Shown here piece after piece: positions 18,156-43,047 of a stretch of 64,000 nucleotides of DNA. Position 1 is the stretch's first letter. Each line of letters begins with the position of its first letter. The notes beneath the pieces are model-generated. The model did no database searches. It saw only the letters and a list, made by a program, of their open reading frames with translations, and had not been told where the DNA came from. The stretch is from Balanoglossus misakiensis (lineage: Eukaryota > Animalia > Hemichordata), in the NCBI GenBank assembly GCA_040954595.2, contig CM082587.2, forward strand, positions 11,773,262-11,837,261. The letters run 5' to 3'. The position numbers were made by a program, and so were the translations under genes.

Positions 18156-19959
18156 AGTAAAGTTCCACGTGCATTCCTGGCCCTGGTTTTATTTATGTTT
18201 ACAGACAATATTGCATTTTTGTACAAGTATTTTAATCAACTATAAATTTTGAATGTGTCATTTACCTGAACCGGTCATGTTGACCAGAATGATACATTTC
18301 TGCCTTCACTCACCCTATAAATATGTGATTGAGACATAGGTCATTTGCATAAGCTAACATACCAGAAAGTAAGCATATCTGTTGTTTTCCCTGTGTCACT
18401 GCCATCAAAGTAAAAATTAGACGTTGTGTAGAGCAAACTCCAATTTTTTGTTCTCAATAAACATGGATGAATTACATAGAATGTGTTTGTTGTTTACAGT
18501 CTTTAAATGACACATTAGATTATGCACTTTACAAAACGTTTCTGAGAAACAAGTGACTAACTAGTTTCTTTCCACTGTGGCCAACGTGGTTCACTGTTTG
18601 TGTCAGAATCTCTCTGTTTTGCAAGGATTTTGAAATCATAGTGGTGACATGCATAGTGAAAATCAGCTACTTTCAAATGTCCGTCATGTTCATGCTGTAA
18701 TTGAATTTTCAAAGCTGGGCTGGCGTGTTTTTTCTTATTTACATAAGTATCACACTTTATACATGTATCTTCATGGGGTTTTTTGAGTCCCGTATTTAGG
18801 TCCTCTCTCACAATTTTACGAAATATCGTATAACTGACAGTTGTTCTTCCCAGAAGAGATTGGTTGGTTATGAACTCTCGGTGTAACTGCGATATACTGT
18901 GGTCCGGCGCCAGGTACGGTTTAAATCGAGGATTCCTGCAGTAGTGAGATTCTACAATTCTGTGCCTGCGTACGTGTTCAGTGATATCAGTCAGCAAATT
19001 TGGATTGAGTTTCCGACGATGCCCTTTGTGTCGGCCCCTTGCATCTGGCATCAGACCAGTAAAGTTCCATGTGCATTCCTGGCCCTGGTTTTATTTATGT
19101 TTACAGACAATATTGCATTTTTGTACAAGTATTTTAATCAACTATAAATTTTGAATGTGTCATTTACCTGAACCGGTCATGTTGACCAGAATGATACATT
19201 TCTGCCTTCACTCACCCTATAAATATGTGATTGAGACATAGGTCATTTGCATAAGCTAACATACCAGAAAGTAAGCATATCTGTTGTTTTCCCTGTGTCA
19301 CTGCCATCAAAGTAAAAATTAGACGTTGTGTAGAGCAAACTCCAATTTTTTGTTCTCAATAAACATGGATGAATTACATAGAATGTGTTTGTTGTTTACA
19401 GTCTTTAAATGACACATTAGATTATGCACTTTACAAAACGTTTCTGAGAAACAAGTGACTAACTAGTTTCTTTCCACTGTGGCCAACGTGGTTCACTGTT
19501 TGTGTCAGAATCTCTCTGTTTTGCAAGGATTTTGAAATCATAGTGGTGACATGCATAGTGAAAATCAGCTACTTTCAAATGTCCGTCATGTTCATGCTGT
19601 AATTGAATTTTCAAAGCTGGGCTGGCGTGTTTTTTCTTATTTACATAAGTATCACACTTTATACATGTATCTTCATGGGGTTTTCTGAGTCCCGTATTTA
19701 GGTCCTCTCTCACAATTTTACGAAATATCGTATAACTGACAGTTGTTCTTCCCAGAAGAGATTGGTTGGTTATGAACTCTCGGTGTAACTGCGATATACT
19801 GTGGTCCGGCGCCAGGTACGGTTTAAATCGAGGATTCCTGCAGTAGTGAGATTCTACAATTCTGTGCCTGCGTACGTGTTCAGTGATATCAGTCAGCAAA
19901 TTTGGATTGAGTTTCCGACGATGCCCTTTGTGTCGGCCCCTTGCATCTGGCATCAGACC
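18156..19959. repeat. 902-bp direct tandem duplication (18156-19057 / 19058-19959)
   Basis: Same sequence at offset 902, with agt microhomology at the junction. Two substitutions noticed: c18168/t19070 and a K/R codon change. Confidence 0.95.
18557..19051 (-). pseudogene. 5'-truncated duplicate of the transposase N-half gene (164 aa, open from an internal Met)
   Basis: Identical to the last 164 aa of the 19459-20415 protein except one R/K change. Lies in the 902-bp duplication. Confidence 0.75.
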
Positions 19960-20415
19960 AGTTGAACAGTGCATCATTTTGCTTAGAACGGTTCTAGTCC
20001 GCCTCTCACTAATGCCAAATAATTTCAGGAATGCATTTTTGCAGACAGTAACCGTTTCACCGCCTTCATTCACCAGGTGATAACGAACCGATTTCTTGTG
20101 TGACTTCATCTGTATATCCATCAGTTTGTAGAGCATCAAGTTCTGTTCATTATACACGCGACCATCAAAATATTTTCTCGTGGTGCCTAAAACATGCGTA
20201 CTCCCAAGCTTCCGCAGACAATTCCCTTGAACGCAGGCGCATTCCAAGGAAAGACTGTCAATATCTGGAAAAGGGCGATTTTTCCTTGGTTTTTGTCTCG
20301 GACACGTCTTTTTAGAATTCCTACGTGGCTTGTTGGCTCGAGCTGACAGTTCGGTTCTGCGTTGCTGCCACACAGGAATGGGTTCCCACGCATAAGCAAC
20401 TCCCCGGCAGGCCAT
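19459..20415 (-). CDS. N-terminal half of Sola1-like transposase (DNA-binding/Zn region), 318 aa
   Basis: First ATG at 20415. Motifs CACVQGNC, VTVCKNAFLKLFGISERR, DARGRH, ESHYCR..YL, SYTIFRKIV..N.GL.KPHEDTCIKCD, H..HL..A are typical of the region preceding the catalytic core in this family. Confidence 0.8.
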   Translation of the reverse strand: MACRGVAYAWEPIPVWQQRRTELSARANKPRRNSKKTCPRQKPRKNRPFPDIDSLSLECACVQGNCLRKLGSTHVLGTTRKYFDGRVYNEQNLMLYKLMDIQMKSHKKSVRYHLVNEGGETVTVCKNAFLKLFGISERRTRTVLSKMMHCSTGLMPDARGRHKGHRRKLNPNLLTDITEHVRRHRIVESHYCRNPRFKPYLAPDHSISQLHREFITNQSLLGRTTVSYTIFRKIVREDLNTGLRKPHEDTCIKCDTYVNKKKHASPALKIQLQHEHDGHLKVADFHYACHHYDFKILAKQRDSDTNSEPRWPQWKETS

Positions 20416-20586
20416 GGTCACAGCTGAAGTATTTGTTCAAGTACTGACTGACTAAACGCGGCATGGAACAAACGAACGAACGAACGAACGACTTCACGTT
20501 CGGAAAAAAAATCGTTGCGAGCTGTTGGGTGCCTCTATAGTTGTCGGCAACCGTTCTTTTTTATTGCTAAACAATGCTGTCAGAGC
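20416..20586. promoter_or_regulatory. Putative 171-bp bidirectional promoter between the two transposase halves
   Basis: Head-to-head ATGs at 20415(-) and 20587(+). Contains short (ACTG)n and (AACG)5 repeats. Function inferred from position only. Confidence 0.5.
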
Positions 20587-21600
20587 ATGGAAGGTGTGGT
20601 GGAAAACGAACAGAGGTTTTGTACGACCAACGATTGGATGGTGCTACATATGGACTTCCACAAGTCATTGCCGGTTCCTAAACTCAGCTCTGAAGACTTT
20701 TACTTTAAATCGAAATTGCAAATGAAGCTCCTTGGAATTTACAACGGGACAACGGAAAAGATGCATTGTTATGTATGGACAGAGCTCGATAGCAGAAAGT
20801 CTCCCGATGAAGTTATTACCTGTCTAAATCACTTTTTTTATAACTCGGGTGTGACCAGCAGACATGCAGTTATTTACAGCGACAACTGCCGTGCCGAATT
20901 CAAGTGTGGGAAGTTAATGTTTTACTATGACTATCTGTTACGAAAGGGCGTGTTTCGACGAATTGACTATAAAACTCTTGTGGCTGGACACACGTACTCC
21001 ACCTGTGACCGAGTTTTTGCGTCCATTGAAAGGCATGCAAGTCGTTTCCAGAGTATAGAGACACCTCACGATTGGACATCTGTGATTCGAGGATCTTCTC
21101 TGAATGGGAACATTGGAGTTACGGAGATGACTCACAGAGACTTTTTCAATTATTCTGATTTCCTGAAAAATGAGTACGTTGTGCGTTATGCAGATACAAA
21201 CAATGTAACTTTTTACTACCAAGCCATGCACTATTTTAATTTTGGAGAAGGAGAAAGGCTTGATACCGACGGCAACCTCAGAACATTTAGTCATGCAGAT
21301 AAAGTTTGGGTGAGAACATCTCTAGATCCAAGCGAGACCCCGATTGTAGTCGACTTTAGAAAGAAGAAGCAGAACCGGCGTTTACAAGATTGTACGCTGA
21401 ACAAACTTTATCAGGAACGTCGACCACTGGCGAGCAAAGTTTGGCGGGATCTTCAGAGTTTAGCCAAAAATTACCTGTCTCCGGAGGCAATAGAATTTTA
21501 TAGGAATCTACCGCTTCAGGAGAGTAGTGGCACCTCTGCAGACCCGTACGCCTTTCATGATGATGACGACGACGATGATGATGATATGGGCGGTGGTTGA
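20587..21600 (+). CDS. Catalytic (RNase H-fold DDD) half of Sola1-like transposase, 337 aa, acidic tail
   Basis: MDFHKSLPVP...FYFKSKL...CYVWTE...EVITCL...YSDNC...KTLVAGHTYSTCDRVFASIE: three candidate catalytic Asp intact. First ATG at 20587. ATTAAA at 21701. Confidence 0.87.
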   Translation: MEGVVENEQRFCTTNDWMVLHMDFHKSLPVPKLSSEDFYFKSKLQMKLLGIYNGTTEKMHCYVWTELDSRKSPDEVITCLNHFFYNSGVTSRHAVIYSDNCRAEFKCGKLMFYYDYLLRKGVFRRIDYKTLVAGHTYSTCDRVFASIERHASRFQSIETPHDWTSVIRGSSLNGNIGVTEMTHRDFFNYSDFLKNEYVVRYADTNNVTFYYQAMHYFNFGEGERLDTDGNLRTFSHADKVWVRTSLDPSETPIVVDFRKKKQNRRLQDCTLNKLYQERRPLASKVWRDLQSLAKNYLSPEAIEFYRNLPLQESSGTSADPYAFHDDDDDDDDDMGGG

Positions 21601-21918
21601 ACAAACTGTCCTTTTCATGACGACAGTGATTTTGGATATTTGATGTGCGTGCACAGTTTATATGTAATATTTTCACACGAACGAGTTTTGACTGAATTTG
21701 ATTAAAGAATGTACTCGATAATTAACAAATGTGCTGAATCGTGGTTATTATGTTGTTAATTTTTGTTTGTTTGTTTGTTTGTTTGTAAACAATTTCCGTT
21801 CATTCAACTGGCTACAAAGTTGGATTTTTGTACTGGGAAGCGATAAACTCGCACATCAAAACCGGGGAGACTCGATCATTTTTCCCTGCAGGTAGCCTGA
21901 AAAGCACCCGGGCAGAGA

Positions 21919-21991
21919 TTACGTCATATATGGTCCACTTTAATACGAAATTATGCAAATGTGACATTTCACGGAAACGGCGTATATAAAA
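21919..21991 (+). promoter_or_regulatory. Pol II promoter-like cluster upstream of wHTH-SET gene
   Basis: CRE-like TTACGTCA 21919-21926, octamer ATGCAAAT 21953-21960, TATATAAAA 21983-21991, about 90 bp before ATG 22084. Confidence 0.55.
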
Positions 21992-22083
21992 GCGACCCTG
22001 GGCTATTGTTCGGAATGCGTCATCGACGAGAGAGTGACTGATAATTCTTCTACCTCGAGTCAACCATTCTGTATATACTGAAC

Positions 22084-23410
22084 ATGGCTAGCTGGCGCAG
22101 GAAGAGACAAGGCAATGTGCGGTCTGTAATCAACGAACGGCACCGCTCAGTTCAGTGTCCCTTTCTTCAAAAGTGGATCGGTGAGCAATTGGTATTTTCA
22201 GGTCGTTCAGAGGATGAAGTCCAGTCCAGTACTGTATTTGAGAGCTACAAATGTTGGGTTGAAAACTATTCGTCGGCGGACAATCAAGTAATGATTATGG
22301 TTACTAAAGCTCGATTTTTCAAGGTGAGAATGATCGCATTTTTCTTCCCCCCCCCCCTCCCTCCCCCAAGGGACTCGTTTTCTGTCTCTTTTAAACCTGT
22401 AACTTAACGAAAAGGAAGTTTTTCACATATCTCTTTGTTGACACTATAGCAATTTGGAGCGCGGATGCTTCAAGAGAATAGCGTTACCAAATCAAAGTCG
22501 GCCGGGGTTAATATTTATAGAGGTGTTCGTCTGAAAGCTGGTTCGCGAAGAATCTCAACGGGGAAACCTGAGCACAGTGTACTTCAGACCAGGGCAAGGG
22601 CATTTCTTGATGACGCCAGCGTGACCGTTCCGATCGAGGTAAGAATGGTGTTTTGTTTGGACTAGGACAATAGAACGTTGCAATGAGTGTGTCAATGGGT
22701 GTCCAAGTGCAAACGTGGTCGGCTTCTGTCCACAAATGCCATTAATTTTAGGCAGGATTTATAAAATTGTCAATGAAGAATACAAAAATGAAAAACAATA
22801 GTTAATAGCAAACGGGTAGGATTGCAAGGGCTTGTAAAACGGTACACACTGTACCAGGAAGTTTGCAACACTAATGAAGAATGTATATGATATATTTAGG
22901 TGAGAACTGTTCGCGATCGCCGGGACGCAGGACGGTGCGCGTTTTCGACGAGGGATCTTCAAGCCTGGAACGTCGTCTGCGAATACCGGGGCACGGTTAT
23001 TAGCGTTGAAGAAGCTAGTCGGCGTGATGAACTTTACAGGGCAGAGGGGAAACGACCACGCATGTTTCATCTCTACATTGGAAAGAGACACGTTGTGTGA
23101 GTGTATCACTTAGTCGAATATATGGTCATATATTGCAAAGCATCTGTCGAAATAGAAAACGTAATATTGTCTATATTTTCCTCATTAACGCAGCATTGAC
23201 GGATACGATGTCCCAGCCGGTGAAGAAAATTTAGCGGGCCTAATAAATCACAGTCAGCAGAACGCCAACTTGGTACCGGTTCGGATCGGAGAGCGCCTGG
23301 TTTTCTTTGCAACCAGGAATCTTTGTCAGGGAGTAGAGCTTTTGTATGATTACGGTGACGGGGGTGAAGAGGATTTCTTCAGTGGTTCTCAAACTTTTCC
23401 TGAAAATTAA
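22084..23410 (+). CDS. 4-exon gene: D5/RFX-like winged helix fused to SET8/PR-Set7(KMT5A)-like SET domain, ~280 aa
   Basis: Exons 22084-22323, 22450-22638, 22900-23096, 23194-23410 joined by GT-AG introns (phases 0, 0, 2) give one open frame. SET motifs AGRCAFSTRDL..VVCEYRG, IDG, LAGLINHS..N, FATRNL..GVELLYDYGD. N-terminus FLQKWI..VQSSTVFESYKCW..KARFFKQFG..NIYRGVRLK resembles a wHTH. Confidence 0.88.
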
Positions 23411-24319
23411 GGCATTAACACATCAACGCTTCGGGATGTCGTAACGGCGGCAAGGCGGGGGGGGGGGGGGGGGGGGCGTGAAAATGTTTGTATCAGGAAC
23501 AAAATTCCCGTGCAAATCACCTTGATCCGGGTGGGTGGACTATTCGCGACAAATGTTGGAAATCATACAAAGCATTTTACTTAATTAACCCATTTTTTTC
23601 ATTTATTTGTTTACAGTTTACAACGTCATAGAGAAGTTGAACTAGAGACTGGATCAGCGTGGGTGACACCATAGTACACCAATGTTTTCTTCAGTTTGAT
23701 TCAATTGTAATTTAAAACTGAGATTGCCTAACGCTTTCCCAGATTTTTTTAACCACTGAGAAACTGTGGGTTTTTTTCTGGGTTTTGGTGCGAGGTGATC
23801 TCAGTCAGTGGTGTTAATTTAATTAATCATTTTCTTTTCCTATTTACGTCGACTGAAATGTATTTTGATAGGTGATAGTCATACCATAAAAAAATCTTAC
23901 GGCGCGACTGCCAAAATGTACATTTATTTGTCCGTTCCAAGTTATTTTGTGTATGTGTGATGGGTGCCGGTGACTGTGCAGGGTTGATTTCCCTAGAGCG
24001 ACTGTTATATTCGTTTTCCAACGATGATGAATTTACATGTTATTTGCTTGGCATTTTGACGCAGAGACACTTCTGAAAACACAAACCTATTAATTATGCC
24101 ACGGGTGTAAATTGATCACATTAAAAGAGGCTTTAGACGTTTGCCGCGAGCTCCTGGTGGGCAGAATCTTGTCAGCCCAAATTTGACTATAAGTACATAG
24201 CCAATGATGTGACGCTCTCCCACATCCTTCGCCGCGCCTTTTCGCTGATTTACAGCATCTTGCGTAAACACTGTCATTTGATCTTGCTTGGCAGAAGTCA
24301 ACTTGCTCTATACTACATT

Positions 24320-24685
24320 ATGGCGGCCAAGCTCAACTGCATATCAGATAATGCCAAGGAGCGTTTGAGAGGCATCCTCGCCAGAAGGAGTCGCGTTTCC
24401 GGTGACTGTGTGCTCTGGACGGGTGCAGCTTGTCGAAACGGCTATGGCTCTATTACGTTCAGAGATGAGAACACTCTAACCGCCTATGTCCATCACATTG
24501 CACTCCTAATTAACGGAGTGCAATTGGTGGGCAGGCGGTTAGAGTGTTCTCATCTTTGCAACGAAAAGCTATGCATCCGCCCAGAGCACATTGTCCAGGA
24601 AACGCGACTCCTAAACATTTCACGAAAGACGTGCTTTAAATCCCCAAAAGGGGAGTGTCACCACGATCCCAGGTGCCTAAGGTGA
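24320..24685 (+). CDS. His-Me finger endonuclease (zinc-binding loop homing endonuclease, I-PpoI-like), 121 aa
   Basis: CVLWTGA..NGYGSI...YVHH...ECSHLCNEKLCIRPEHIVQET..LNISRKTC...CHHDPRC. First ATG at 24320. The stop overlaps a strong donor AAG|GTGAGT, so the 3' end may be spliced. Confidence 0.88.
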   Translation: MAAKLNCISDNAKERLRGILARRSRVSGDCVLWTGAACRNGYGSITFRDENTLTAYVHHIALLINGVQLVGRRLECSHLCNEKLCIRPEHIVQETRLLNISRKTCFKSPKGECHHDPRCLR

Positions 24686-25598
24686 GTAATCCTCTTCTCA
24701 TTTGATATGTATTGTGTGACCCTGCAGTTGAAACGCTTTCATCAATAATTTGCGGCGCGTGGGTAATCTCGGTGTTATTGACAATGCAGCCGGCCCAAAC
24801 ATTTTTAAATTAACACTGTTTCTGACTGTATTAACGAAATGTCCAATTTGCAAGTAGCCTATAGACAACCCTTTTGAATGAGTTTTGTCTCGTTGAGATT
24901 TTATACATAAGGAACAATCTAGATTTATTTTAGAAGACACTGTTCTTTTAAAACAGCTAGCATAATACAGCTAAATTTCGGAATTTCCGGACAATTTTCG
25001 GAATTCCTTTTAAATTTGAGAAATTTTTCATCAGATATAAGTGTTACTATTTATTGGACATGTTTTTATCATTGTTTACTTTTTAAGGTCATTCTCATCC
25101 CCCCCCCCCCCCCCAAAAAAAAGCCGCTTTAGGCTTCATGTTCAGTAAAAAATCTGGAAAGTTCAGCTGAATTTTACACTGATCACACATTTTTGGGAAG
25201 GTCTGGCGCAAAATAAAGGATGACAAATGTAAATCTAATGTCACATTTGTAAACCTCTAAGTATTGTACACTCATTCTATTAAGTATATGCAAATAGTAC
25301 GGATAATTTTTTCGGAATGTGGAATTCCGAAATTAGTTCGGAACGTGTTAGCAGTGAAGAGATCACCACTGAGGGTTGGAAGGCCTTGCCAGAAATTAAC
25401 GCGTAAAGTACGCCCTCACAGGCCATGTAAACAAGGTCAAATAAGGCCGTCTGGCAAACGAATGATTAATTCAACGCGCCATTTGAGCCGAGCTGAGTTG
25501 GTCTGAGTTGCGTATCACACAGACTTAGGCTGAATGTCAGTGGAGTAACCAGTCCGTTTTAGATTTACCAATGATGTGAATTTAATTTCTTCACCCAG

Positions 25599-26000
25599 AA
25601 AAACAGAACACAACTTGTCTGCAACATGATGCTGGAGGTGACACATGACAGAGAAGTGGATCCGCGTTGTCAACACAGATGCCAGCATTCAAAAGGGGAG
25701 TGCCACCTGCTAAAATCAACTCATCTGCTGTTGGCCCATTTTACCTGTGGCAACTGTTCAGAGGAGACAACGTTTATTCCGTGCAAGCCAACACGCAATG
25801 TTGGGGTCTACCTGTCAACACAGATGCAAGCATTCATGTGAGTGAGTATCAGGACTGACCTTGTTTTGCTGAATAATTCATAATGCCTATTTTAGAATTC
25901 TTAGAGGCATTTGGAGTTCATTGCCTGGTCAACCAAACTACACCCCTTAACAGCTGAAACAAAATGCGTATTGTGTTCATTCATTCATTGCTTCAATATA
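25599..26000 (+). repeat. Diverged copy of satellite module A inside the cassette
   Basis: Blocks acagatgccagcattca, aactcatctgctgt, agcattcatgtgagtgagt, tgcctattttagaattctta, ctggtca and ttcattcattcattgc occur in monomer order. Internal direct repeat tgtcaacacagatgc at 25668 and 25813. Confidence 0.85.
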
Positions 26001-26316
26001 TATAGGCAACATGAGTATCAAGTAGCACTATTTGTTTACGATTGTATTCATGAAAACTTCCCACTAACAATTCCACAGTTAATATTGAACACATTTATCC
26101 AACAAGGTCAAAAGAAAAAGGGAATCTTCTGGTTCCAAAATACGCCACAAATGTGGGTCAACATACAGTGAAATATTATGGTGCTCAAATATGCAACATA
26201 TCAAATCTGTCTCATCAAAGTCATGCTTTAAAAAAGAATTGAAAAGGTATTATTTATCCATTTGACTGCTGTATTTTCAGAAGGAAAACAAACTGAATTT
26301 GGTTTTTCATGTACAA

Positions 26317-29300
26317 ATATTTTCTGTAAAATAGACATTTAATTGGCAAGCCGTCCTGCATCAATTATTAATTGTGTACATGCACTAAAGCGCCCTCACT
26401 GCTGGGTGTGTTGTATGGTCTTTAACCCTGTTTCAAATTAGAGTACTTTCTGCAATTTCAAGACAGATCTTACGTGCCATTGGAGAGCTCCATTGACTGG
26501 TCATTCATACTGTTTTCATTCATTCATTGCGGCATCAATATATTTTATGTATTCTAGCCAAAGAGCTTGGCACCTGTTGAAATGAACTCATCTGCTGTGG
26601 GCCAGTTTATTGGTGGCAGTTGAGCTGAGGAGAGCACCTTCCTTCCCGGCACGCCACCAAGTAAAGTTCCACGCCGCCCACCACAGATGCCAGCATTCAT
26701 TCATGCGAGTGAGTGTAATTGCAAATTTGCCTATTCTAGATCTGTAATGGAAATGGAGAAAGTACCTTATATTTTCTGTAAAATAGACATTTAATTGGCA
26801 AGCCGTCCTGCATCAATTATTAATTGTGTACATGCACTAAAGCGCCCTCACTGCTGGGTGTGTTGTATGGTCTTTAACCCTGTTTCAAATTAGAGTACTT
26901 TCTGCAATTTCAAGACAGATCTTACGTGCCATTGGAGAGCTCCATTGACTGGTCATTCATACTGTTTTCATTCATTCATTGCGGCATCAATATATTTTAT
27001 CTATTCTAGCCAAAGAGCTTGGCACCTGTTGAAATGAACTCATCTGCTGTGGGCCAGTTTATTGGTGGCAGTTGAGCTGAGGAGAGCACCTTCCTTCCCG
27101 GCACGCCACCAAGTAAAGTTCCACGCCGCCCACCACAGATGCCAGCATTCATTCATGCGAGTGAGTGTAATTGCAAATTTGCCTATTCTAGAATTACGTG
27201 CCATTGGAGAGCTCCATTGACTGGTCATTCATACTGTTTTCATTCATTCATTGCGGCATCAATATATTTTATCTATTCTAGCCAAAGAGCTTGGCACCTG
27301 TTGAAATGAACTCATCTGCTGTGGGCCAGTTTATTGGTGGCAGTTGAGCTGAGGAGAGCACCTTCCTTCCCGGCACGCCACCAAGTAAAGTTCCACGCCG
27401 CCCACCACAGATGCCAGCATTCATTCATGCGAGTGAGTGTAATTGCAAATTTGCCTATTCTAGATCTGTAATGGAAATGGAGAAAGTACCTTATATTTTC
27501 TGTAAAATAGACATTTAATTGGCAAGCCGTCCTGCATCAATTATGAATTGTGTACATGCACTAAAGCGCCCTCACTGCTGGGTGTGTTGTATGGTCTTTA
27601 ACCCTGTTTCAAATTAGAGTACTTTCTGCAATTTCAAGACAGATCTTACGTGCCATTGGAGAGCTCCATTGACTGGTCATTCATACTGTTTTCATTCATT
27701 CATTGCGGCATCAATATATTTTATCTATTCTAGCCAAAGAGCTTGGCACCTGTTGAAATGAACTCATCTGCTGTGGGCCAGTTTATTGGTGGCAGTTGAG
27801 CTGAGGAGAGCACCTTCCTTCCCGGCACGCCACCAAGTAAAGTTCCACGCCGCCCACCACAGATGCCAGCATTCATTCATGCGAGTGAGTGTAATTGCAA
27901 ATTTGCCTATTCTAGAATCTTACGTGCCATTGGAGAGCTCCATTGACTGGTCATTCATACTGTTTTCATTCATTCATTGCGGCATCAATATATTTTATCT
28001 ATTCTAGCCAAAGAGCTTGGCACCTGTTGAAATGAACTCATCTGCTGTGGGCCAGTTTATTGGTGGCAGTTGAGCTGAGGAGAGCACCTTCCTTCCCGGC
28101 ACGCCACCAAGTAAAGTTCCACGCCGCCCACCACAGATGCCAGCATTCATTCATGCGAGTGAGTGTAATTGCAAATTTGCCTATTCTAGATCTGTAATGG
28201 AAATGGAGAAAGTACCTTATATTTTCTGTAAAATAGACATTTAATTGGCAAGCCGTCCTGCATCAATTATTAATTGTGTACATGCACTAAAGCGCCCTCA
28301 CTGCTGGGTGTGTTGTATGGTCTTTAACCCTGTTTCAAATTAGAGTACTTTCTGCAATTTCAAGACAGATCTTACGTGCCATTGGAGAGCTCCATTGACT
28401 GGTCATTCATACTGTTTTCATTCATTCATTGCGGCATCAATATATTTTATCTATTCTAGCCAAAGAGCTTGGCACCTGTTGAAATGAACTCATCTGCTGT
28501 GGGCCAGTTTATTGGTGGCAGTTGAGCTGAGAAGAGCACCTTCCTTCCCGGCACGCCACCAAGTAAAGTTCCACGCCGCCCACCACAGATGCCAGCATTC
28601 ATTCATGCGAGTGAGTGTAATTGCAAATTTGCCTATTCTAGATCTGTAATGGAAATGGAGAAAGTACCTTATATTTTCTGTAAAATAGACATTTAATTGG
28701 CAAGCCGTCCTGCATCAATTATGAATTGTGTACATGCACTAAAGCGCCCTCACTGCTGGGTGTGTTGTATGGTCTTTAACCCTGTTTCAAATTAGAGTAC
28801 TTTCTGCAATTTCAAGACAGATCTTACGTGCCATTGGAGAGCTCCATTGACTGGTCATTCATACTGTTTTCATTCATTCATTGCGGCATCAATATATTTT
28901 ATCTATTCTAGCCAAAGAGCTTGGCACCTGTTGAAATGAACTCATCTGCTGTGGGCCAGTTTATTGGTGGCAGTTGAGCTGAGGAGAGCACCTTCCTTCC
29001 CGGCACGCCACCAAGTAAAGTTCCACGCCGCCCACCACAGATGCCAGCATTCATTCATGCGAGTGAGTGTAATTGCAAATTTGCCTATTCTAGATCTGTA
29101 ATGGAAATGGAGAAAGTACCTTATATTTTCTGTAAAATAGACATTTAATTGGCAAGCCGTCCTGCATCAATTATGAATTGTGTACATGCACTAAAGCGCC
29201 CTCACTGCTGGGTGTGTTGTATGGTCTTTAACCCTGTTTCAAATTAGAGTACTTTCTGCAATTTCAAGACAGATCTTACGTGCCATTGGAGAGCTCCATT

Positions 29301-32300
29301 GACTGGTCATTCATACTGTTTTCATTCATTCATTGCGGCATCAATATATTTTATCTATTCTAGCCAAAGAGCTTGGCACCTGTTGAAATGAACTCATCTG
29401 CTGTGGGCCAGTTTATTGGTGGCAGTTGAGCTGAGGAGAGCACCTTCCTTCCCGGCACGCCACCAAGTAAAGTTCCACGCCGCCCACCACAGATGCCAGC
29501 ATTCATTCATGCGAGTGAGTGTAATTGCAAATTTGCCTATTCTAGATCTGTAATGGAAATGGAGAAAGTACCTTATATTTTCTGTAAAATAGACATTTAA
29601 TTGGCAAGCCGTCCTGCATCAATTATGAATTGTGTACATGCACTAAAGCGCCCTCACTGCTGGGTGTGTTGTATGGTCTTTAACCCTGTTTCAAATTAGA
29701 GTACTTTCTGCAATTTCAAGACAGATCTTACGTGCCATTGGAGAGCTCCATTGACTGGTCATTCATACTGTTTTCATTCATTCATTGCGGCATCAATATA
29801 TTTTATCTATTCTAGCCAAAGAGCTTGGCACCTGTTGAAATGAACTCATCTGCTGTGGGCCAGTTTATTGGTGGCAGTTGAGCTGAGGAGAGCACCTTCC
29901 TTCCCGGCACGCCACCAAGTAAAGTTCCACGCCGCCCACCACAGATGCCAGCATTCATTCATGCGAGTGAGTGTAATTGCAAATTTGCCTATTCTAGATC
30001 TGTAATGGAAATGGAGAAAGTACCTTATATTTTCTGTAAAATAGACATTTAATTGGCAAGCCGTCCTGCATCAATTATGAATTGTGTACATGCACTAAAG
30101 CGCCCTCACTGCTGGGTGTGTTGTATGGTCTTTAACCCTGTTTCAAATTAGAGTACTTTCTGCAATTTCAAGACAGATCTTACGTGCCATTGGAGAGCTC
30201 CATTGACTGGTCATTCATACTGTTTTCATTCATTCATTGCGGCATCAATATATTTTATCTATTCTAGCCAAAGAGCTTGGCACCTGTTGAAATGAACTCA
30301 TCTGCTGTGGGCCAGTTTATTGGTGGCAGTTGAGCTGAGAAGAGCACCTTCCTTCCCGGCACGCCACCAAGTAAAGTTCCACGCCGCCCACCACAGATGC
30401 CAGCATTCATTCATGCGAGTGAGTGTAATTGCAAATTTGCCTATTCTAGAATCTTACGTGCCATTGGAGAGCTCCATTGACTGGTCATTCATACTGTTTT
30501 CATTCATTCATTGCGGCATCAATATATTTTATCTATTCTAGCCAAAGAGCTTGGCACCTGTTGAAATGAACTCATCTGCTGTGGGCCAGTTTATTGGTGG
30601 CAGTTGAGCTGAGGAGAGCACCTTCCTTCCCGGGACGCCACCAAGTAAAGTTCCACGCCGCCCACCACAGATGCCAGCATTCATTCATGCGAGTGAGTGT
30701 AATTGCAAATTTGCCTATTCTAGATTCTTACGTGCCATTGGAGAGCTCCATTGACTGGTCATTCATACTGTTTTCATTCATTCATTGCGGCATCAATATA
30801 TTTTATCTATTCTAGCCAAAGAGCTTGGCACCTGTTGAAATGAACTCATCTGCTGTGGGCCAGTTTATTGGTGGCAGTTGAGCTGAGGAGAGCACCTTCC
30901 TTCCCGGCACGCCACCAAGTAAAGTTCCACGCCGCCCACCACAGATGCCAGCATTCATTCATGCGAGTGAGTGTAATTGCAAATTTGCCTATTCTAGATC
31001 TGTAATGGAAATGGAGAAAGTACCTTATATTTTCTGTAAAATAGACATTTAATTGGCAAGCCGTCCTGCATCAATTATTAATTGTGTACATGCACTAAAG
31101 CGCCCTCACTGCTGGGTGTGTTGTATGGTCTTTAACCCTGTTTCAAATTAGAGTACTTTCTGCAATTTCAAGACAGATCTTACGTGCCATTGGAGAGCTC
31201 CATTGACTGGTCATTCATACTGTTTTCATTCATTCATTGCGGCATCAATATATTTTATCTATTCTAGCCAAAGAGCTTGGCACCTGTTGAAATGAACTCA
31301 TCTGCTGTGGGCCAGTTTATTGGTGGCAGTTGAGCTGAGGAGAGCACCTTCCTTCCCGGCACGCCACCAAGTAAAGTTCCACGCCGCCCACCACAGATGC
31401 CAGCATTCATTCATGCGAGTGAGTGTAATTGCAAATTTGCCTATTCTAGATCTGTAATGGAAATGGAGAAAGTACCTTATATTTTCTGTAAAATAGACAT
31501 TTAATTGGCAAGCCGTCCTGCATCAATTATTAATTGTGTACATGCACTAAAGCGCCCTCACTGCTGGGTGTGTTGTATGGTCTTTAACCCTGTTTCAAAT
31601 TAGAGTACTTTCTGCAATTTCAAGACAGATCTTACGTGCCATTGGAGAGCTCCATTGACTGGTCATTCATACTGTTTTCATTCATTCATTGCGGCATCAA
31701 TATATTTTATCTATTCTAGCCAAAGAGCTTGGCACCTGTTGAAATGAACTCATCTGCTGTGGGCCAGTTTATTGGTGGCAGTTGAGCTGAGGAGAGCACC
31801 TTCCTTCCCGGCACGCCACCAAGTAAAGTTCCACGCCGCCCACCACAGATGCCAGCATTCATTCATGCGAGTGAGTGTAATTGCAAATTTGCCTATTCTA
31901 GAATTACGTGCCATTGGAGAGCTCCATTGACTGGTCATTCATACTGTTTTCATTCATTCATTGCGGCATCAATATATTTTATCTATTCTAGCCAAAGAGC
32001 TTGGCACCTGTTGAAATGAACTCATCTGCTGTGGGCCAGTTTATTGGTGGCAGTTGAGCTGAGGAGAGCACCTTCCTTCCCGGCACGCCACCAAGTAAAG
32101 TTCCACGCCGCCCACCACAGATGCCAGCATTCATTCATGCGAGTGAGTGTAATTGCAAATTTGCCTATTCTAGATCTGTAATGGAAATGGAGAAAGTACC
32201 TTATATTTTCTGTAAAATAGACATTTAATTGGCAAGCCGTCCTGCATCAATTATGAATTGTGTACATGCACTAAAGCGCCCTCACTGCTGGGTGTGTTGT

Positions 32301-35300
32301 ATGGTCTTTAACCCTGTTTCAAATTAGAGTACTTTCTGCAATTTCAAGACAGATCTTACGTGCCATTGGAGAGCTCCATTGACTGGTCATTCATACTGTT
32401 TTCATTCATTCATTGCGGCATCAATATATTTTATCTATTCTAGCCAAAGAGCTTGGCACCTGTTGAAATGAACTCATCTGCTGTGGGCCAGTTTATTGGT
32501 GGCAGTTGAGCTGAGGAGAGCACCTTCCTTCCCGGCACGCCACCAAGTAAAGTTCCACGCCGCCCACCACAGATGCCAGCATTCATTCATGCGAGTGAGT
32601 GTAATTGCAAATTTGCCTATTCTAGAATCTTACGTGCCATTGGAGAGCTCCATTGACTGGTCATTCATACTGTTTTCATTCATTCATTGCGGCATCAATA
32701 TATTTTATCTATTCTAGCCAAAGAGCTTGGCACCTGTTGAAATGAACTCATCTGCTGTGGGCCAGTTTATTGGTGGCAGTTGAGCTGAGGAGAGCACCTT
32801 CCTTCCCGGCACGCCACCAAGTAAAGTTCCACGCCGCCCACCACAGATGCCAGCATTCATTCATGCGAGTGAGTGTAATTGCAAATTTGCCTATTCTAGA
32901 TCTGTAATGGAAATGGAGAAAGTACCTTATATTTTCTGTAAAATAGACATTTAATTGGCAAGCCGTCCTGCATCAATTATTAATTGTGTACATGCACTAA
33001 AGCGCCCTCACTGCTGGGTGTGTTGTATGGTCTTTAACCCTGTTTCAAATTAGAGTACTTTCTGCAATTTCAAGACAGATCTTACGTGCCATTGGAGAGC
33101 TCCATTGACTGGTCATTCATACTGTTTTCATTCATTCATTGCGGCATCAATATATTTTATCTATTCTAGCCAAAGAGCTTGGCACCTGTTGAAATGAACT
33201 CATCTGCTGTGGGCCAGTTTATTGGTGGCAGTTGAGCTGAGAAGAGCACCTTCCTTCCCGGCACGCCACCAAGTAAAGTTCCACGCCGCCCACCACAGAT
33301 GCCAGCATTCATTCATGCGAGTGAGTGTAATTGCAAATTTGCCTATTCTAGATCTGTAATGGAAATGGAGAAAGTACCTTATATTTTCTGTAAAATAGAC
33401 ATTTAATTGGCAAGCCGTCCTGCATCAATTATGAATTGTGTACATGCACTAAAGCGCCCTCACTGCTGGGTGTGTTGTATGGTCTTTAACCCTGTTTCAA
33501 ATTAGAGTACTTTCTGCAATTTCAAGACAGATCTTACGTGCCATTGGAGAGCTCCATTGACTGGTCATTCATACTGTTTTCATTCATTCATTGCGGCATC
33601 AATATATTTTATCTATTCTAGCCAAAGAGCTTGGCACCTGTTGAAATGAACTCATCTGCTGTGGGCCAGTTTATTGGTGGCAGTTGAGCTGAGGAGAGCA
33701 CCTTCCTTCCCGGCACGCCACCAAGTAAAGTTCCACGCCGCCCACCACAGATGCCAGCATTCATTCATGCGAGTGAGTGTAATTGCAAATTTGCCTATTC
33801 TAGATCTGTAATGGAAATGGAGAAAGTACCTTATATTTTCTGTAAAATAGACATTTAATTGGCAAGCCGTCCTGCATCAATTATGAATTGTGTACATGCA
33901 CTAAAGCGCCCTCACTGCTGGGTGTGTTGTATGGTCTTTAACCCTGTTTCAAATTAGAGTACTTTCTGCAATTTCAAGACAGATCTTACGTGCCATTGGA
34001 GAGCTCCATTGACTGGTCATTCATACTGTTTTCATTCATTCATTGCGGCATCAATATATTTTATCTATTCTAGCCAAAGAGCTTGGCACCTGTTGAAATG
34101 AACTCATCTGCTGTGGGCCAGTTTATTGGTGGCAGTTGAGCTGAGGAGAGCACCTTCCTTCCCGGCACGCCACCAAGTAAAGTTCCACGCCGCCCACCAC
34201 AGATGCCAGCATTCATTCATGCGAGTGAGTGTAATTGCAAATTTGCCTATTCTAGATCTGTAATGGAAATGGAGAAAGTACCTTATATTTTCTGTAAAAT
34301 AGACATTTAATTGGCAAGCCGTCCTGCATCAATTATGAATTGTGTACATGCACTAAAGCGCCCTCACTGCTGGGTGTGTTGTATGGTCTTTAACCCTGTT
34401 TCAAATTAGAGTACTTTCTGCAATTTCAAGACAGATCTTACGTGCCATTGGAGAGCTCCATTGACTGGTCATTCATACTGTTTTCATTCATTCATTGCGG
34501 CATCAATATATTTTATCTATTCTAGCCAAAGAGCTTGGCACCTGTTGAAATGAACTCATCTGCTGTGGGCCAGTTTATTGGTGGCAGTTGAGCTGAGGAG
34601 AGCACCTTCCTTCCCGGCACGCCACCAAGTAAAGTTCCACGCCGCCCACCACAGATGCCAGCATTCATTCATGCGAGTGAGTGTAATTGCAAATTTGCCT
34701 ATTCTAGATCTGTAATGGAAATGGAGAAAGTACCTTATATTTTCTGTAAAATAGACATTTAATTGGCAAGCCGTCCTGCATCAATTATGAATTGTGTACA
34801 TGCACTAAAGCGCCCTCACTGCTGGGTGTGTTGTATGGTCTTTAACCCTGTTTCAAATTAGAGTACTTTCTGCAATTTCAAGACAGATCTTACGTGCCAT
34901 TGGAGAGCTCCATTGACTGGTCATTCATACTGTTTTCATTCATTCATTGCGGCATCAATATATTTTATCTATTCTAGCCAAAGAGCTTGGCACCTGTTGA
35001 AATGAACTCATCTGCTGTGGGCCAGTTTATTGGTGGCAGTTGAGCTGAGAAGAGCACCTTCCTTCCCGGCACGCCACCAAGTAAAGTTCCACGCCGCCCA
35101 CCACAGATGCCAGCATTCATTCATGCGAGTGAGTGTAATTGCAAATTTGCCTATTCTAGAATCTTACGTGCCATTGGAGAGCTCCATTGACTGGTCATTC
35201 ATACTGTTTTCATTCATTCATTGCGGCATCAATATATTTTATCTATTCTAGCCAAAGAGCTTGGCACCTGTTGAAATGAACTCATCTGCTGTGGGCCAGT

Positions 35301-38300
35301 TTATTGGTGGCAGTTGAGCTGAGGAGAGCACCTTCCTTCCCGGGACGCCACCAAGTAAAGTTCCACGCCGCCCACCACAGATGCCAGCATTCATTCATGC
35401 GAGTGAGTGTAATTGCAAATTTGCCTATTCTAGATTCTTACGTGCCATTGGAGAGCTCCATTGACTGGTCATTCATACTGTTTTCATTCATTCATTGCGG
35501 CATCAATATATTTTATCTATTCTAGCCAAAGAGCTTGGCACCTGTTGAAATGAACTCATCTGCTGTGGGCCAGTTTATTGGTGGCAGTTGAGCTGAGGAG
35601 AGCACCTTCCTTCCCGGCACGCCACCAAGTAAAGTTCCACGCCGCCCACCACAGATGCCAGCATTCATTCATGCGAGTGAGTGTAATTGCAAATTTGCCT
35701 ATTCTAGATCTGTAATGGAAATGGAGAAAGTACCTTATATTTTCTGTAAAATAGACATTTAATTGGCAAGCCGTCCTGCATCAATTATTAATTGTGTACA
35801 TGCACTAAAGCGCCCTCACTGCTGGGTGTGTTGTATGGTCTTTAACCCTGTTTCAAATTAGAGTACTTTCTGCAATTTCAAGACAGATCTTACGTGCCAT
35901 TGGAGAGCTCCATTGACTGGTCATTCATACTGTTTTCATTCATTCATTGCGGCATCAATATATTTTATCTATTCTAGCCAAAGAGCTTGGCACCTGTTGA
36001 AATGAACTCATCTGCTGTGGGCCAGTTTATTGGTGGCAGTTGAGCTGAGGAGAGCACCTTCCTTCCCGGCACGCCACCAAGTAAAGTTCCACGCCGCCCA
36101 CCACAGATGCCAGCATTCATTCATGCGAGTGAGTGTAATTGCAAATTTGCCTATTCTAGAATTACGTGCCATTGGAGAGCTCCATTGACTGGTCATTCAT
36201 ACTGTTTTCATTCATTCATTGCGGCATCAATATATTTTATCTATTCTAGCCAAAGAGCTTGGCACCTGTTGAAATGAACTCATCTGCTGTGGGCCAGTTT
36301 ATTGGTGGCAGTTGAGCTGAGGAGAGCACCTTCCTTCCCGGCACGCCACCAAGTAAAGTTCCACGCCGCCCACCACAGATGCCAGCATTCATTCATGCGA
36401 GTGAGTGTAATTGCAAATTTGCCTATTCTAGATCTGTAATGGAAATGGAGAAAGTACCTTATATTTTCTGTAAAATAGACATTTAATTGGCAAGCCGTCC
36501 TGCATCAATTATGAATTGTGTACATGCACTAAAGCGCCCTCACTGCTGGGTGTGTTGTATGGTCTTTAACCCTGTTTCAAATTAGAGTACTTTCTGCAAT
36601 TTCAAGACAGATCTTACGTGCCATTGGAGAGCTCCATTGACTGGTCATTCATACTGTTTTCATTCATTCATTGCGGCATCAATATATTTTATCTATTCTA
36701 GCCAAAGAGCTTGGCACCTGTTGAAATGAACTCATCTGCTGTGGGCCAGTTTATTGGTGGCAGTTGAGCTGAGGAGAGCACCTTCCTTCCCGGCACGCCA
36801 CCAAGTAAAGTTCCACGCCGCCCACCACAGATGCCAGCATTCATTCATGCGAGTGAGTGTAATTGCAAATTTGCCTATTCTAGATCTGTAATGGAAATGG
36901 AGAAAGTACCTTATATTTTCTGTAAAATAGACATTTAATTGGCAAGCCGTCCTGCATCAATTATGAATTGTGTACATGCACTAAAGCGCCCTCACTGCTG
37001 GGTGTGTTGTATGGTCTTTAACCCTGTTTCAAATTAGAGTACTTTCTGCAATTTCAAGACAGATCTTACGTGCCATTGGAGAGCTCCATTGACTGGTCAT
37101 TCATACTGTTTTCATTCATTCATTTCGGCATCAATATATTTTATCTATTCTAGCCAAAGAGCTTGGCACCTGTTGAAATGAACTCATCTGCTGTGGGCCA
37201 GTTTATTGGTGGCAGTTGAGCTGAGAAGAGCACCTTCCTTCCCGGCACGCCACCAAGTAAAGTTCCACGCCGCCCACCACAGATGCCAGCATTCATTCAT
37301 GCGAGTGAGTGTAATTGCAAATTTGCCTATTCTAGAATCTTACGTGCCATTGGAGAGCTCCATTGACTGGTCATTCATACTGTTTTCATTCATTCATTGC
37401 GGCATCAATATATTTTATCTATTCTAGCCAAAGAGCTTGGCACCTGTTGAAATGAACTCATCTGCTGTGGGCCAGTTTATTGGTGGCAGTTGAGCTGAGG
37501 AGAGCACCTTCCTTCCCGGGACGCCACCAAGTAAAGTTCCACGCCGCCCACCACAGATGCCAGCATTCATTCATGCGAGTGAGTGTAATTGCAAATTTGC
37601 CTATTCTAGATTCTTACGTGCCATTGGAGAGCTCCATTGACTGGTCATTCATACTGTTTTCATTCATTCATTGCGGCATCAATATATTTTATCTATTCTA
37701 GCCAAAGAGCTTGGCACCTGTTGAAATGAACTCATCTGCTGTGGGCCAGTTTATTGGTGGCAGTTGAGCTGAGGAGAGCACCTTCCTTCCCGGCACGCCA
37801 CCAAGTAAAGTTCCACGCCGCCCACCACAGATGCCAGCATTCATTCATGCGAGTGAGTGTAATTGCAAATTTGCCTATTCTAGATCTGTAATGGAAATGG
37901 AGAAAGTACCTTATATTTTCTGTAAAATAGACATTTAATTGGCAAGCCGTCCTGCATCAATTATTAATTGTGTACATGCACTAAAGCGCCCTCACTGCTG
38001 GGTGTGTTGTATGGTCTTTAACCCTGTTTCAAATTAGAGTACTTTCTGCAATTTCAAGACAGATCTTACGTGCCATTGGAGAGCTCCATTGACTGGTCAT
38101 TCATACTGTTTTCATTCATTCATTGCGGCATCAATATATTTTATCTATTCTAGCCAAAGAGCTTGGCACCTGTTGAAATGAACTCATCTGCTGTGGGCCA
38201 GTTTATTGGTGGCAGTTGAGCTGAGGAGAGCACCTTCCTTCCCGGCACGCCACCAAGTAAAGTTCCACGCCGCCCACCACAGATGCCAGCATTCATTCAT

Positions 38301-40801
38301 GCGAGTGAGTGTAATTGCAAATTTGCCTATTCTAGAATTACGTGCCATTGGAGAGCTCCATTGACTGGTCATTCATACTGTTTTCATTCATTCATTGCGG
38401 CATCAATATATTTTATCTATTCTAGCCAAAGAGCTTGGCACCTGTTGAAATGAACTCATCTGCTGTGGGCCAGTTTATTGGTGGCAGTTGAGCTGAGGAG
38501 AGCACCTTCCTTCCCGGCACGCCACCAAGTAAAGTTCCACGCCGCCCACCACAGATGCCAGCATTCATTCATGCGAGTGAGTGTAATTGCAAATTTGCCT
38601 ATTCTAGATCTGTAATGGAAATGGAGAAAGTACCTTATATTTTCTGTAAAATAGACATTTAATTGGCAAGCCGTCCTGCATCAATTATGAATTGTGTACA
38701 TGCACTAAAGCGCCCTCACTGCTGGGTGTGTTGTATGGTCTTTAACCCTGTTTCAAATTAGAGTACTTTCTGCAATTTCAAGACAGATCTTACGTGCCAT
38801 TGGAGAGCTCCATTGACTGGTCATTCATACTGTTTTCATTCATTCATTGCGGCATCAATATATTTTATCTATTCTAGCCAAAGAGCTTGGCACCTGTTGA
38901 AATGAACTCATCTGCTGTGGGCCAGTTTATTGGTGGCAGTTGAGCTGAGGAGAGCACCTTCCTTCCCGGCACGCCACCAAGTAAAGTTCCACGCCGCCCA
39001 CCACAGATGCCAGCATTCATTCATGCGAGTGAGTGTAATTGCAAATTTGCCTATTCTAGATCTGTAATGGAAATGGAGAAAGTACCTTATATTTTCTGTA
39101 AAATAGACATTTAATTGGCAAGCCGTCCTGCATCAATTATTAATTGTGTACATGCACTAAAGCGCCCTCACTGCTGGGTGTGTTGTATGGTCTTTAACCC
39201 TGTTTCAAATTAGAGTACTTTCTGCAATTTCAAGACAGATCTTACGTGCCATTGGAGAGCTCCATTGACTGGTCATTCATACTGTTTTCATTCATTCATT
39301 GCGGCATCAATATATTTTATCTATTCTAGCCAAAGAGCTTGGCACCTGTTGAAATGAACTCATCTGCTGTGGGCCAGTTTATTGGTGGCAGTTGAGCTGA
39401 GAAGAGCACCTTCCTTCCCGGCACGCCACCAAGTAAAGTTCCACGCCGCCCACCACAGATGCCAGCATTCATTCATGCGAGTGAGTGTAATTGCAAATTT
39501 GCCTATTCTAGATCTGTAATGGAAATGGAGAAAGTACCTTATATTTTCTGTAAAATAGACATTTAATTGGCAAGCCGTCCTGCATCAATTATGAATTGTG
39601 TACATGCACTAAAGCGCCCTCACTGCTGGGTGTGTTGTATGGTCTTTAACCCTGTTTCAAATTAGAGTACTTTCTGCAATTTCAAGACAGATCTTACGTG
39701 CCATTGGAGAGCTCCATTGACTGGTCATTCATACTGTTTTCATTCATTCATTGCGGCATCAATATATTTTATCTATTCTAGCCAAAGAGCTTGGCACCTG
39801 TTGAAATGAACTCATCTGCTGTGGGCCAGTTTATTGGTGGCAGTTGAGCTGAGGAGAGCACCTTCCTTCCCGGCACGCCACCAAGTAAAGTTCCACGCCG
39901 CCCACCACAGATGCCAGCATTCATTCATGCGAGTGAGTGTAATTGCAAATTTGCCTATTCTAGATCTGTAATGGAAATGGAGAAAGTACCTTATATTTTC
40001 TGTAAAATAGACATTTAATTGGCAAGCCGTCCTGCATCAATTATGAATTGTGTACATGCACTAAAGCGCCCTCACTGCTGGGTGTGTTGTATGGTCTTTA
40101 ACCCTGTTTCAAATTAGAGTACTTTCTGCAATTTCAAGACAGATCTTACGTGCCATTGGAGAGCTCCATTGACTGGTCATTCATACTGTTTTCATTCATT
40201 CATTGCGGCATCAATATATTTTATCTATTCTAGCCAAAGAGCTTGGCACCTGTTGAAATGAACTCATCTGCTGTGGGCCAGTTTATTGGTGGCAGTTGAG
40301 CTGAGGAGAGCACCTTCCTTCCCGGCACGCCACCAAGTAAAGTTCCACGCCGCCCACCACAGATGCCAGCATTCATTCATGCGAGTGAGTGTAATTGCAA
40401 ATTTGCCTATTCTAGATCTGTAATGGAAATGGAGAAAGTACCTTATATTTTCTGTAAAATAGACATTTAATTGGCAAGCCGTCCTGCATCAATTATGAAT
40501 TGTGTACATGCACTAAAGCGCCCTCACTGCTGGGTGTGTTGTATGGTCTTTAACCCTGTTTCAAATTAGAGTACTTTCTGCAATTTCAAGACAGATCTTA
40601 CGTGCCATTGGAGAGCTCCATTGACTGGTCATTCATACTGTTTTCATTCATTCATTGCGGCATCAATATATTTTATCTATTCTAGCCAAAGAGCTTGGCA
40701 CCTGTTGAAATGAACTCATCTGCTGTGGGCCAGTTTATTGGTGGCAGTTGAGCTGAGGAGAGCACCTTCCTTCCCGGCACGCCACCAAGTAAAGTTCCAC
40801 G
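26317..40801. repeat. Tandem satellite array 2
   Basis: Same monomers. 4710-bp (27786 to 32496) and 2176-bp (35030 to 37206) higher-order periods. Confidence 0.99.
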
Positions 40802-42591: not shown

Positions 42592-43047
42592 AGTTGAACA
42601 GTGCATCATTTTGCTTAGAACGGTTCTAGTCCGCCTCTCACTAATGCCAAATAATTTCAGGAATGCATTTTTGCAGACAGTAACCGTTTCACCGCCTTCA
42701 TTCACCAGGTGATAACGAACCGATTTCTTGTGTGACTTCATCTGTATATCCATCAGTTTGTAGAGCATCAAGTTCTGTTCATTATACACGCGACCATCAA
42801 AATATTTTCTCGTGGTGCCTAAAACATGCGTACTCCCAAGCTTCCGCAGACAATTCCCTTGAACGCAGGCGCATTCCAAGGAAAGACTGTCAATATCTGG
42901 AAAAGGGCGATTTTTCCTTGGTTTTTGTCTCGGACACGTCTTTTTAGAATTCCTACGTGGCTTGTTGGCTCGAGCTGACAGTTCGGTTCTGCGTTGCTGC
43001 CACACAGGAATGGGTTCCCACGCATAAGCAACTCCCCGGCAGGCCAT
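42091..43047 (-). CDS. N-terminal half of Sola1-like transposase, copy 2
   Basis: Same translation as 19459-20415. Confidence 0.8.
   Translation of the reverse strand: MACRGVAYAWEPIPVWQQRRTELSARANKPRRNSKKTCPRQKPRKNRPFPDIDSLSLECACVQGNCLRKLGSTHVLGTTRKYFDGRVYNEQNLMLYKLMDIQMKSHKKSVRYHLVNEGGETVTVCKNAFLKLFGISERRTRTVLSKMMHCSTGLMPDARGRHKGHRRKLNPNLLTDITEHVRRHRIVESHYCRNPRFKPYLAPDHSISQLHREFITNQSLLGRTTVSYTIFRKIVREDLNTGLRKPHEDTCIKCDTYVNKKKHASPALKIQLQHEHDGHLKVADFHYACHHYDFKILAKQRDSDTNSEPRWPQWKETS

Follow-up and report, generated by a model that had tools for sequence, protein, structure and literature searches.

To our knowledge, the cut-and-paste transposases of eukaryotes are either single chains or are paired with an unrelated helper. 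Catalytic functions are separated from accessory or DNA-binding ones in different reading frames in RAG1/RAG2, IS3 OrfA/OrfB, and IS1 InsA/InsB; RAG2 is not known to have arisen from RAG1 by fission, and in IS3 and IS1 the two frames are joined again through ribosomal frameshifting, an option that is closed to genes on opposite strands. The autonomous Sola1 element is described as having one ORF of 630 aa (PMC3845634), and terminal inverted repeats and target duplications of 4 bp (AWWT) are given for known Sola1 elements in the parts of the literature covered. Passenger genes with a SET domain are reported in HarbingerS and MuDR transposons (PMC12730594), and a His-Me nuclease passenger is reported in KolobokP (PMC9587614). 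No two-gene Sola transposase is described in the literature that was searched; Repbase and the original Sola description lie outside that scope and may hold an earlier record.

The window, which is the whole stretch of 64,000 nucleotides analysed, carries two ORFs in head-to-head orientation, each with its own ATG and without stops or frameshifts, at the coordinates and with the spacing claimed in the earlier note. The features of the pair are as follows.

19459..20415, minus strand: gene of the N-terminal half of the transposase (N-half), 318 aa; based on the ORF, its relatives, a structure model with pLDDT of 84, and a strong start context
20416..20586, no strand: spacer between the two ATGs, 171 bp, 45% GC, with 13 CpG and an AACG microsatellite
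20587..21600, plus strand: gene of the C-terminal half (C-half), 337 aa; based on DUF7869, a structure model with pLDDT of 89.7, a fold match, and conserved residues
19090..19095, minus strand: AATAAA from a motif scan, putative poly(A) signal of the N-half gene
21701..21706, plus strand: ATTAAA from a motif scan, putative poly(A) signal of the C-half gene

Both ATGs are in a strong context (purine at -3, G at +4). The N-half contains predicted DNA-binding modules, a CxxC...H motif, and a clade-specific hydrophobic helix at about residues 279-302 that is predicted to dock on the partner. In the C-half, D23, D99, and D141 belong to a catalytic core of the RNase H/DDE type, which is followed by a C-terminal domain and an acidic tail. 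The motifs quoted in the earlier note were found as well, with CxxC...H at the end of the minus-strand ORF and MDFHK as residues 22-26 of the plus-strand ORF. Judged from its sequence and position, the spacer would be a bidirectional promoter co-expressing both genes, an activity that is putative, and we lean somewhat to the opinion that both genes are expressed in the animal from which the window comes. An inverted duplication as the origin of the pair was ruled out, as the N-half and the C-half are unlike each other (hhalign probability of 0.3%).

In the Pfam search, the C-half matched DUF7869 only (E 1.1e-14) and the N-half was without match. The model of the C-half has retroviral integrases (Z 10.4, rmsd 2.9, 133 residues aligned) and Mos1/mariner (Z 9.3) as its best fold matches. 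D141 is invariant and D23 and D99 are nearly invariant in 54 aligned sequences, and the DDD triad is intact in the window. By eye, the C-half resembles the published RNase_H_Sola1 profile (PMC5751038) at consensus positions 1-30 and 57-81; the comparison covers 55 of the 124 consensus positions and, of the three Sola profiles, that of Sola1. For the N-half, nothing clear came out of the fold search, where a chain of the TnsABCD transpososome ranked best (Z 7.0, rmsd 8.3), and among solved structures searched by sequence no Sola relative was recognized (best E 0.24). In 70 of the 163 proteins fetched, both halves were matched on a single chain with the N-match ahead of the C-match; the halves are thus front and back of one family, and not members of different families, which was the possibility raised in the earlier note. 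The pair likely encodes a Sola1-like transposase in two parts, the front and the catalytic half; the name Sola1 is our assumption, taken from the visual profile match.

In 43 single-chain proteins, 26-34 aa (median 30) separate the conserved His from the first catalytic Asp, and the regions flanking the break are therefore adjacent in single-ORF relatives, as had been supposed. The further supposition that little is missing between the halves can be sharpened, as nothing was in fact lost and the break falls within this His-Asp linker. In the window, 39 residues follow the conserved His in the N-half and 22 precede the first catalytic Asp in the C-half; compared with the single-chain linker, both halves gained ends.

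HMMER, run with the N-half and without length limit, found 2,597 hits, and the best 150 among them were examined; a word-index search with the same half had found no relatives. Among these 150, the six best relatives are N-only proteins of 306-347 aa that align near end-to-end with 123-232 bits, while the best single-chain protein reaches 91 bits, so the nearest relatives of the N-half are not single ORFs. In a quick tree of the N-half (67/68 rows), 13 rows with lengths of 224-359 aa and no full-length member form a clade with SH-aLRT of 95; some truncated or partial proteins are included in it, and other short fragments branch outside. Relatives of the C-half are four proteins with 41-51% identity, found in the word-index search, and one at a locus designated as L002. 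Five C-only rows remained after a length filter, and they group in one clade with support of 100 (53/54 rows). The C-only relatives have retained all three catalytic Asp. The starting Met is in one common column in the C-halves of P0001, P0002, and L002, which are all three relatives with a visible start, and the ATG of the window C-half lies seven codons before this column. A later database model of P0002 has 38 extra residues in front, and these have no match to the N-half.

The new ends are conserved too. Large hydrophobic residues are present at positions 292, 294, 296, and 297 in 11/11, 8/11, 11/11, and 10/11 of the N-only ends, versus 10/43, 4/43, 10/43, and 2/43 of the single-chain proteins, where the linker positions were counted as ungapped offsets from the conserved His. 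A Pro/aromatic (Pro/Trp) tail motif ends seven of the 11 N-only proteins and four are without it. The NCBI gene model of P0161, an N-only protein, stops at its own stop codon. Named relatives are from one hemichordate and from cnidarians, with truncated models present in named anemones; the DNA of the window is eukaryotic, and its host is accordingly likely to be a marine invertebrate. The clusters of the relatives are small, with 1-6 members, and the cluster mates of P0008 and P0050 are shorter, apparently broken copies. For most of the relatives there is an ORF call and no gene model, and in some of them a join could be concealed by an intron.

Both halves were found together on DNA at two loci only, the window and L002. 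L002 is arranged in tandem: the end of the N-half and its stop are followed by 42 nt and then by the C-half on the same strand. The 42-nt gap holds a second in-frame stop, after which the ATG of the C-half follows in a strong context, and the C-half is interrupted by one intron. At a third locus, L003, the N-half is present without a C-half in the 3.9 kb upstream, and the downstream side is cut off; the source genome gave no C-half match, which is no argument either way because the contig breaks off within the N gene. Head-to-head order was thus seen in one of three loci with DNA, the window itself, and it is not a family trait. The search for split, divergent homologs proposed in the earlier note was borne out as far as the split is concerned, but not in the divergent layout. 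No locus was found in the viral contigs, in a first metagenome scan, or in a pattern scan of genome contigs, and L001, one of two pattern matches, was dropped as a chance bacterial match. Fission likely came first, in a tandem arrangement such as that of L002, and inversion later in the lineage of the window, which is the simplest sequence of events. Beyond the window and L002 the halves would also be paired, as in the case of P0004 and P0001, the closest relatives of the N-half and the C-half, respectively, each of which lies on a contig of 2,400 bp, possibly one and the same.

Modelling of the heterodimer, as suggested in the earlier note, gave a score of 0.73 versus 0.01 for the best of three controls, in a test which halves of split genes tend to pass by likeness and with a model that was probably trained on single-chain relatives. 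The complex was built without alignments. Of the solved pairs, 51 of 78 microbial and 39 of 65 eukaryotic ones attained the mark for the complex score, as did 2 of 108 microbial and 2 of 126 eukaryotic mismatched pairs. At least 43% of the contacts were common between runs, with partner pLDDT of at least 59. Predicted contacts put residues 279-302 of the N-protein on residues 14-21, 53-55, 95-97, 129-139, and 245-249 of the C-protein, a dock site made of the first catalytic strands and the C-terminal hairpin. The docked stretch is the one with changed chemistry in the split clade, which gives the interface independent support from sequence. Judged from this model, the halves quite probably bind each other.

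In comparison with L002, amino-acid change is below synonymous change in both halves, with pN of 0.39 and pS of 0.86 in the C-half (288 codons) and pN of 0.39 and pS of 0.93 at the N end (77 codons); pS is saturated, and dN/dS is therefore given without a number. The split is almost certainly old and under selection. The view of the earlier note that the pair is an evolved two-part transposase and not a product of decay is upheld by the N-only and C-only clades, the conserved new ends, the strong synonymous excess, the DDD triad, and the complex model. Read variation was seen in X1 and X2, two DNA runs from one sample, in which the main allele differs from the window. One change (Ile to Met) was counted in the 1,971 bp of the two ORFs versus 12 in an adjacent region of 1,570 bp (Fisher p 0.0004, among the variants listed, with 15 rows beyond these), and the spacer has two indels, a deletion of 8 bp and an insertion of 4 bp. 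The low count in the ORFs gives modest support for constraint and could reflect haplotype structure. Runs X3 and X4 contained only scraps of the locus.

The pair lies in a large tandem repeat together with other genes. The features of the repeat are as follows.

18170..40801, no strand: tandem unit of 22,632 bp, with 99.99% identity to the next unit
42091..43047, minus strand: second copy of the N-half gene, identical, 0 differences at lag 22,632
43219..44232, plus strand: second copy of the C-half gene, identical, 0 differences at lag 22,632
18156..19057, no strand: tandem duplicate of 19058-19959, 902 bp, 2 substitutions between the copies
22084..23410, plus strand: gene that is probably spliced and has a SETD8/KMT5A-like SET domain at its end, with Pfam SET E of 0.003 and 1.6e-7 on two exons and with PDB matches
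24320..24685, plus strand: ORF of a His-Me (I-PpoI-like) endonuclease, 121 aa, with Pfam zf-His_Me_endon E of 2e-13 and I-PpoI E of 0.002

About 2.8 units of 22,632 bp fill the window, each with a gene block of about 8.1 kb and about 14.5 kb of satellite with repeats of 452, 272, and 274 bp. The copies of the pair in the window are in tandem, and the region 18001-23400 has no difference from its copy at +22,632. On its minus strand, at 18557-19051, the 902-bp duplicate repeats the final 164 codons of the N-half ORF. Exon borders of the SET gene were set by eye; its first exons gave no significant family match, and they may have a winged-helix likeness. The SET gene and the His-Me ORF may be part of the element of the transposase. 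No convincing pair of terminal inverted repeats or target-site duplications bounding the block was identified between 19058-19460 and 21600-26330, and the ends of the element may have been lost to the satellite or may lie outside this range. The 452-bp repeat is a long satellite with an internal inverted repeat, which does not recur in the gene block. The Rfam search of 16500-27500 gave no match.

From the broken copies among the relatives and the passenger-like SET and His-Me neighbours, the pair seems to be mobile, and it is in our opinion rather probable that it is still a transposon and not a pair of host genes. Domestication is the main rival explanation, according to which an old split transposase has been kept by the host as a two-subunit nuclease or recombinase, or its N-half for DNA binding alone. 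The failure to find element ends in the range given above would fit such a pair, as would the small clusters, the intron in the C-half of L002, and the existence of gene models in named animals. Host genes are less readily reconciled with broken or shorter copies next to intact ones, with a gene order that varies between loci, with neighbours of known transposon-passenger kinds (PMC12730594, PMC9587614, as far as these sources describe them), and with patchy sampling across distant animals, and domestication is considered unlikely.

The halves could also be rejoined in RNA, by cis-splicing past the stop in tandem members and by trans-splicing of opposite strands in the window. Opposite-strand trans-splicing occurs in insects, in mod(mdg4), the two ORFs of L002 are in the same frame and only 42 nt apart, and introns are used in the clade. 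A joined product is, however, less readily expected with an N-half end that is conserved as protein up to the common Pro/Trp motif in seven of the 11 sequences, with the single Met column of the C-halves (3/3), with start codons in strong context both in the window and at L002, and with the P0161 model that terminates at its own stop, and this explanation is very unlikely.

A one-off recent inversion or a misassembly of an ordinary single-ORF transposase, left as a dead copy in a repeat array, would suit a satellite array that is rearranged and locally duplicated over 902 bp, near-identical tandem units that are hard to assemble, and the lack of any single X1/X2 contig across both ATGs, but it is already largely refuted and the least probable of the three, as no close single-chain relative is among the best 150 of 2,597 matches, the break and the new ends are common to distant relatives, each gene has its own ATG in a strong context, depth of X1 and X2 is unbroken over both ORFs and the spacer, and misassembly could touch the orientation at most and never the split.

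The best explanation of the locus, with a probability of roughly 0.7, is a two-gene Sola1-like DDD transposase, split at one common point in a clade of animal relatives and likely made as two proteins that are predicted to reassemble. The break is located in the linker of about 30 residues that leads directly into the first RNase H core strand. According to the model, the last helix of the N-protein would pack on the catalytic sheet of the C-protein, a non-covalent link in place of the lost peptide link. From the place of the N region in the single-chain enzyme, the N-protein would bind the element ends and bring the catalytic protein to them. Fission presumably gave tandem genes, and later inversion of one of them would have left the 171-bp spacer as a common promoter for both. 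The pair would belong, or would recently have belonged, to a DNA transposon that is now amplified in the satellite-containing tandem unit. A bolder and more tentative proposal, to which we give somewhat less than even odds, is an undescribed lineage of animal transposons with an obligate heterodimer born of fission, a new docking helix, freely rearranged genes, and SET and homing-type nuclease passengers, multiplying inside a satellite array or cutting a small element from it.

A long-conserved fission into DNA-binding and catalytic subunits would give a direct view of how a two-component recombinase originates, and the split shows why gene order and regulation become free. It also offers a testable interface in a superfamily for which no solved structure was found by sequence, and the natural split point could serve conditional or retargeted transposon tools. 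For annotators, such halves resemble dead fragments and sit unnamed in databases.

In comparison with known systems, the pair resembles KolobokP in having an I-PpoI-like His-Me nuclease gene beside the transposase and in its tandem multimers (PMC9587614). It differs in that the KolobokP transposase, in the parts of this source covered, is a single chain of another superfamily, and the element has terminal direct repeats of about 450/660 bp with short inverted ends. The transposase in the window is of the DUF7869 type, such terminal direct repeats with inverted ends were not found there, and its His-Me nuclease gene and C-half share one strand, which is a further difference. Sola1-1_Ec32 of Ectocarpus is similar in that a Sola1 element can be large and can carry a second, chromatin- or DNA-modifying gene, but this gene is described as a ParB-methyltransferase passenger and not as a transposase half (PMC12477816). 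The likeness to Sola1 itself lies in the DUF7869 match and visual profile match of the C-half and in the alignment of both halves, in order, to 70 single-chain proteins. Known Sola1 elements, as far as described, differ by their one ORF, terminal inverted repeats, and AWWT duplications, whereas the window has two genes on opposite strands, new docking ends, and no element ends found. The window has neither the Myb/SANT second ORF nor the DDE_Tnp_4-type transposase of PIF/Harbinger, as DUF7869 in the C-half is the only Pfam match of the pair. The common trait with PIF/Harbinger would be a separate DNA-binding protein, which there attaches to the element ends and interacts with its catalytic partner (PMC9179366), a role that is predicted for the N-half. 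The partner in PIF/Harbinger is an unrelated Myb-like protein, whereas both partners in the window would come from one Sola-like chain by fission.

The DNA is arranged as a higher-order satellite with the gene block embedded in each unit, and copies of the unit are 99.99% identical. The following features were annotated:

18170-40801: tandem unit of 22,632 bp, about 2.8 copies of which make up the whole window
17330-17514: insert of about 180 bp with inverted ends, recurring in every 452-bp satellite monomer
22084-23410, plus strand: probable four-exon gene with a SETD8-like SET domain at its end
24404-24595: inverted-repeat region in the His-Me ORF
25668-26316: diverged satellite-like sequence, then a decayed stretch

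The satellite insert is bounded by 28-nt imperfect inverted repeats (82% identity) and in this respect resembles a miniature transposon. Monomers of 452 bp are the most numerous (n=80), followed by those of 274 bp (n=26), 272 bp (n=12), and 275 bp (n=1). The three short classes lack the insert and have four distinct junctions; these resemble the footprints of separate excision events, multiplied within the array.

Octamer-like and TATA-like motifs, judged by eye, precede the SET gene near 21951-21990. In sequencing runs X1 and X2 of one sample, the last exon of this gene and the His-Me ORF both occur in diverged versions, which suggests that related copies of both exist elsewhere. The His-Me ORF has an inverted repeat of 26 nt (24460-24485/24533-24558, 96%) enclosed by a second one, and these nested repeats could potentially form a long hairpin inside the coding sequence. 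The satellite-like part of 25668-26316 is 71% identical over 151 bp. The last frame of the decayed stretch is reminiscent of the C-terminus of a LINE reverse transcriptase; no match to this stretch was found in Pfam.

Two loci carry relatives of the transposase:

L002, 307-354 and 427-738: stretches within the tandem pair, two genes on one strand
L003, 1-4965: contig with an N-only clade member, assigned to a bacterial MAG

The L002 genes are separated by only 42 nt, and the second has a clean GT-AG intron of 312 nt. This second gene may be expressed either through re-initiation or from a separate promoter located within the first ORF. The L003 protein clusters with a coral protein in the tree, and no long ORF was found in the 3.9 kb outside the N-half gene; L003 is therefore probably animal DNA within a bacterial MAG bin.

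Tandem units together with a His-Me nuclease in the gene block recall KolobokP, for which nuclease-driven multimerisation has been proposed (PMC9587614).
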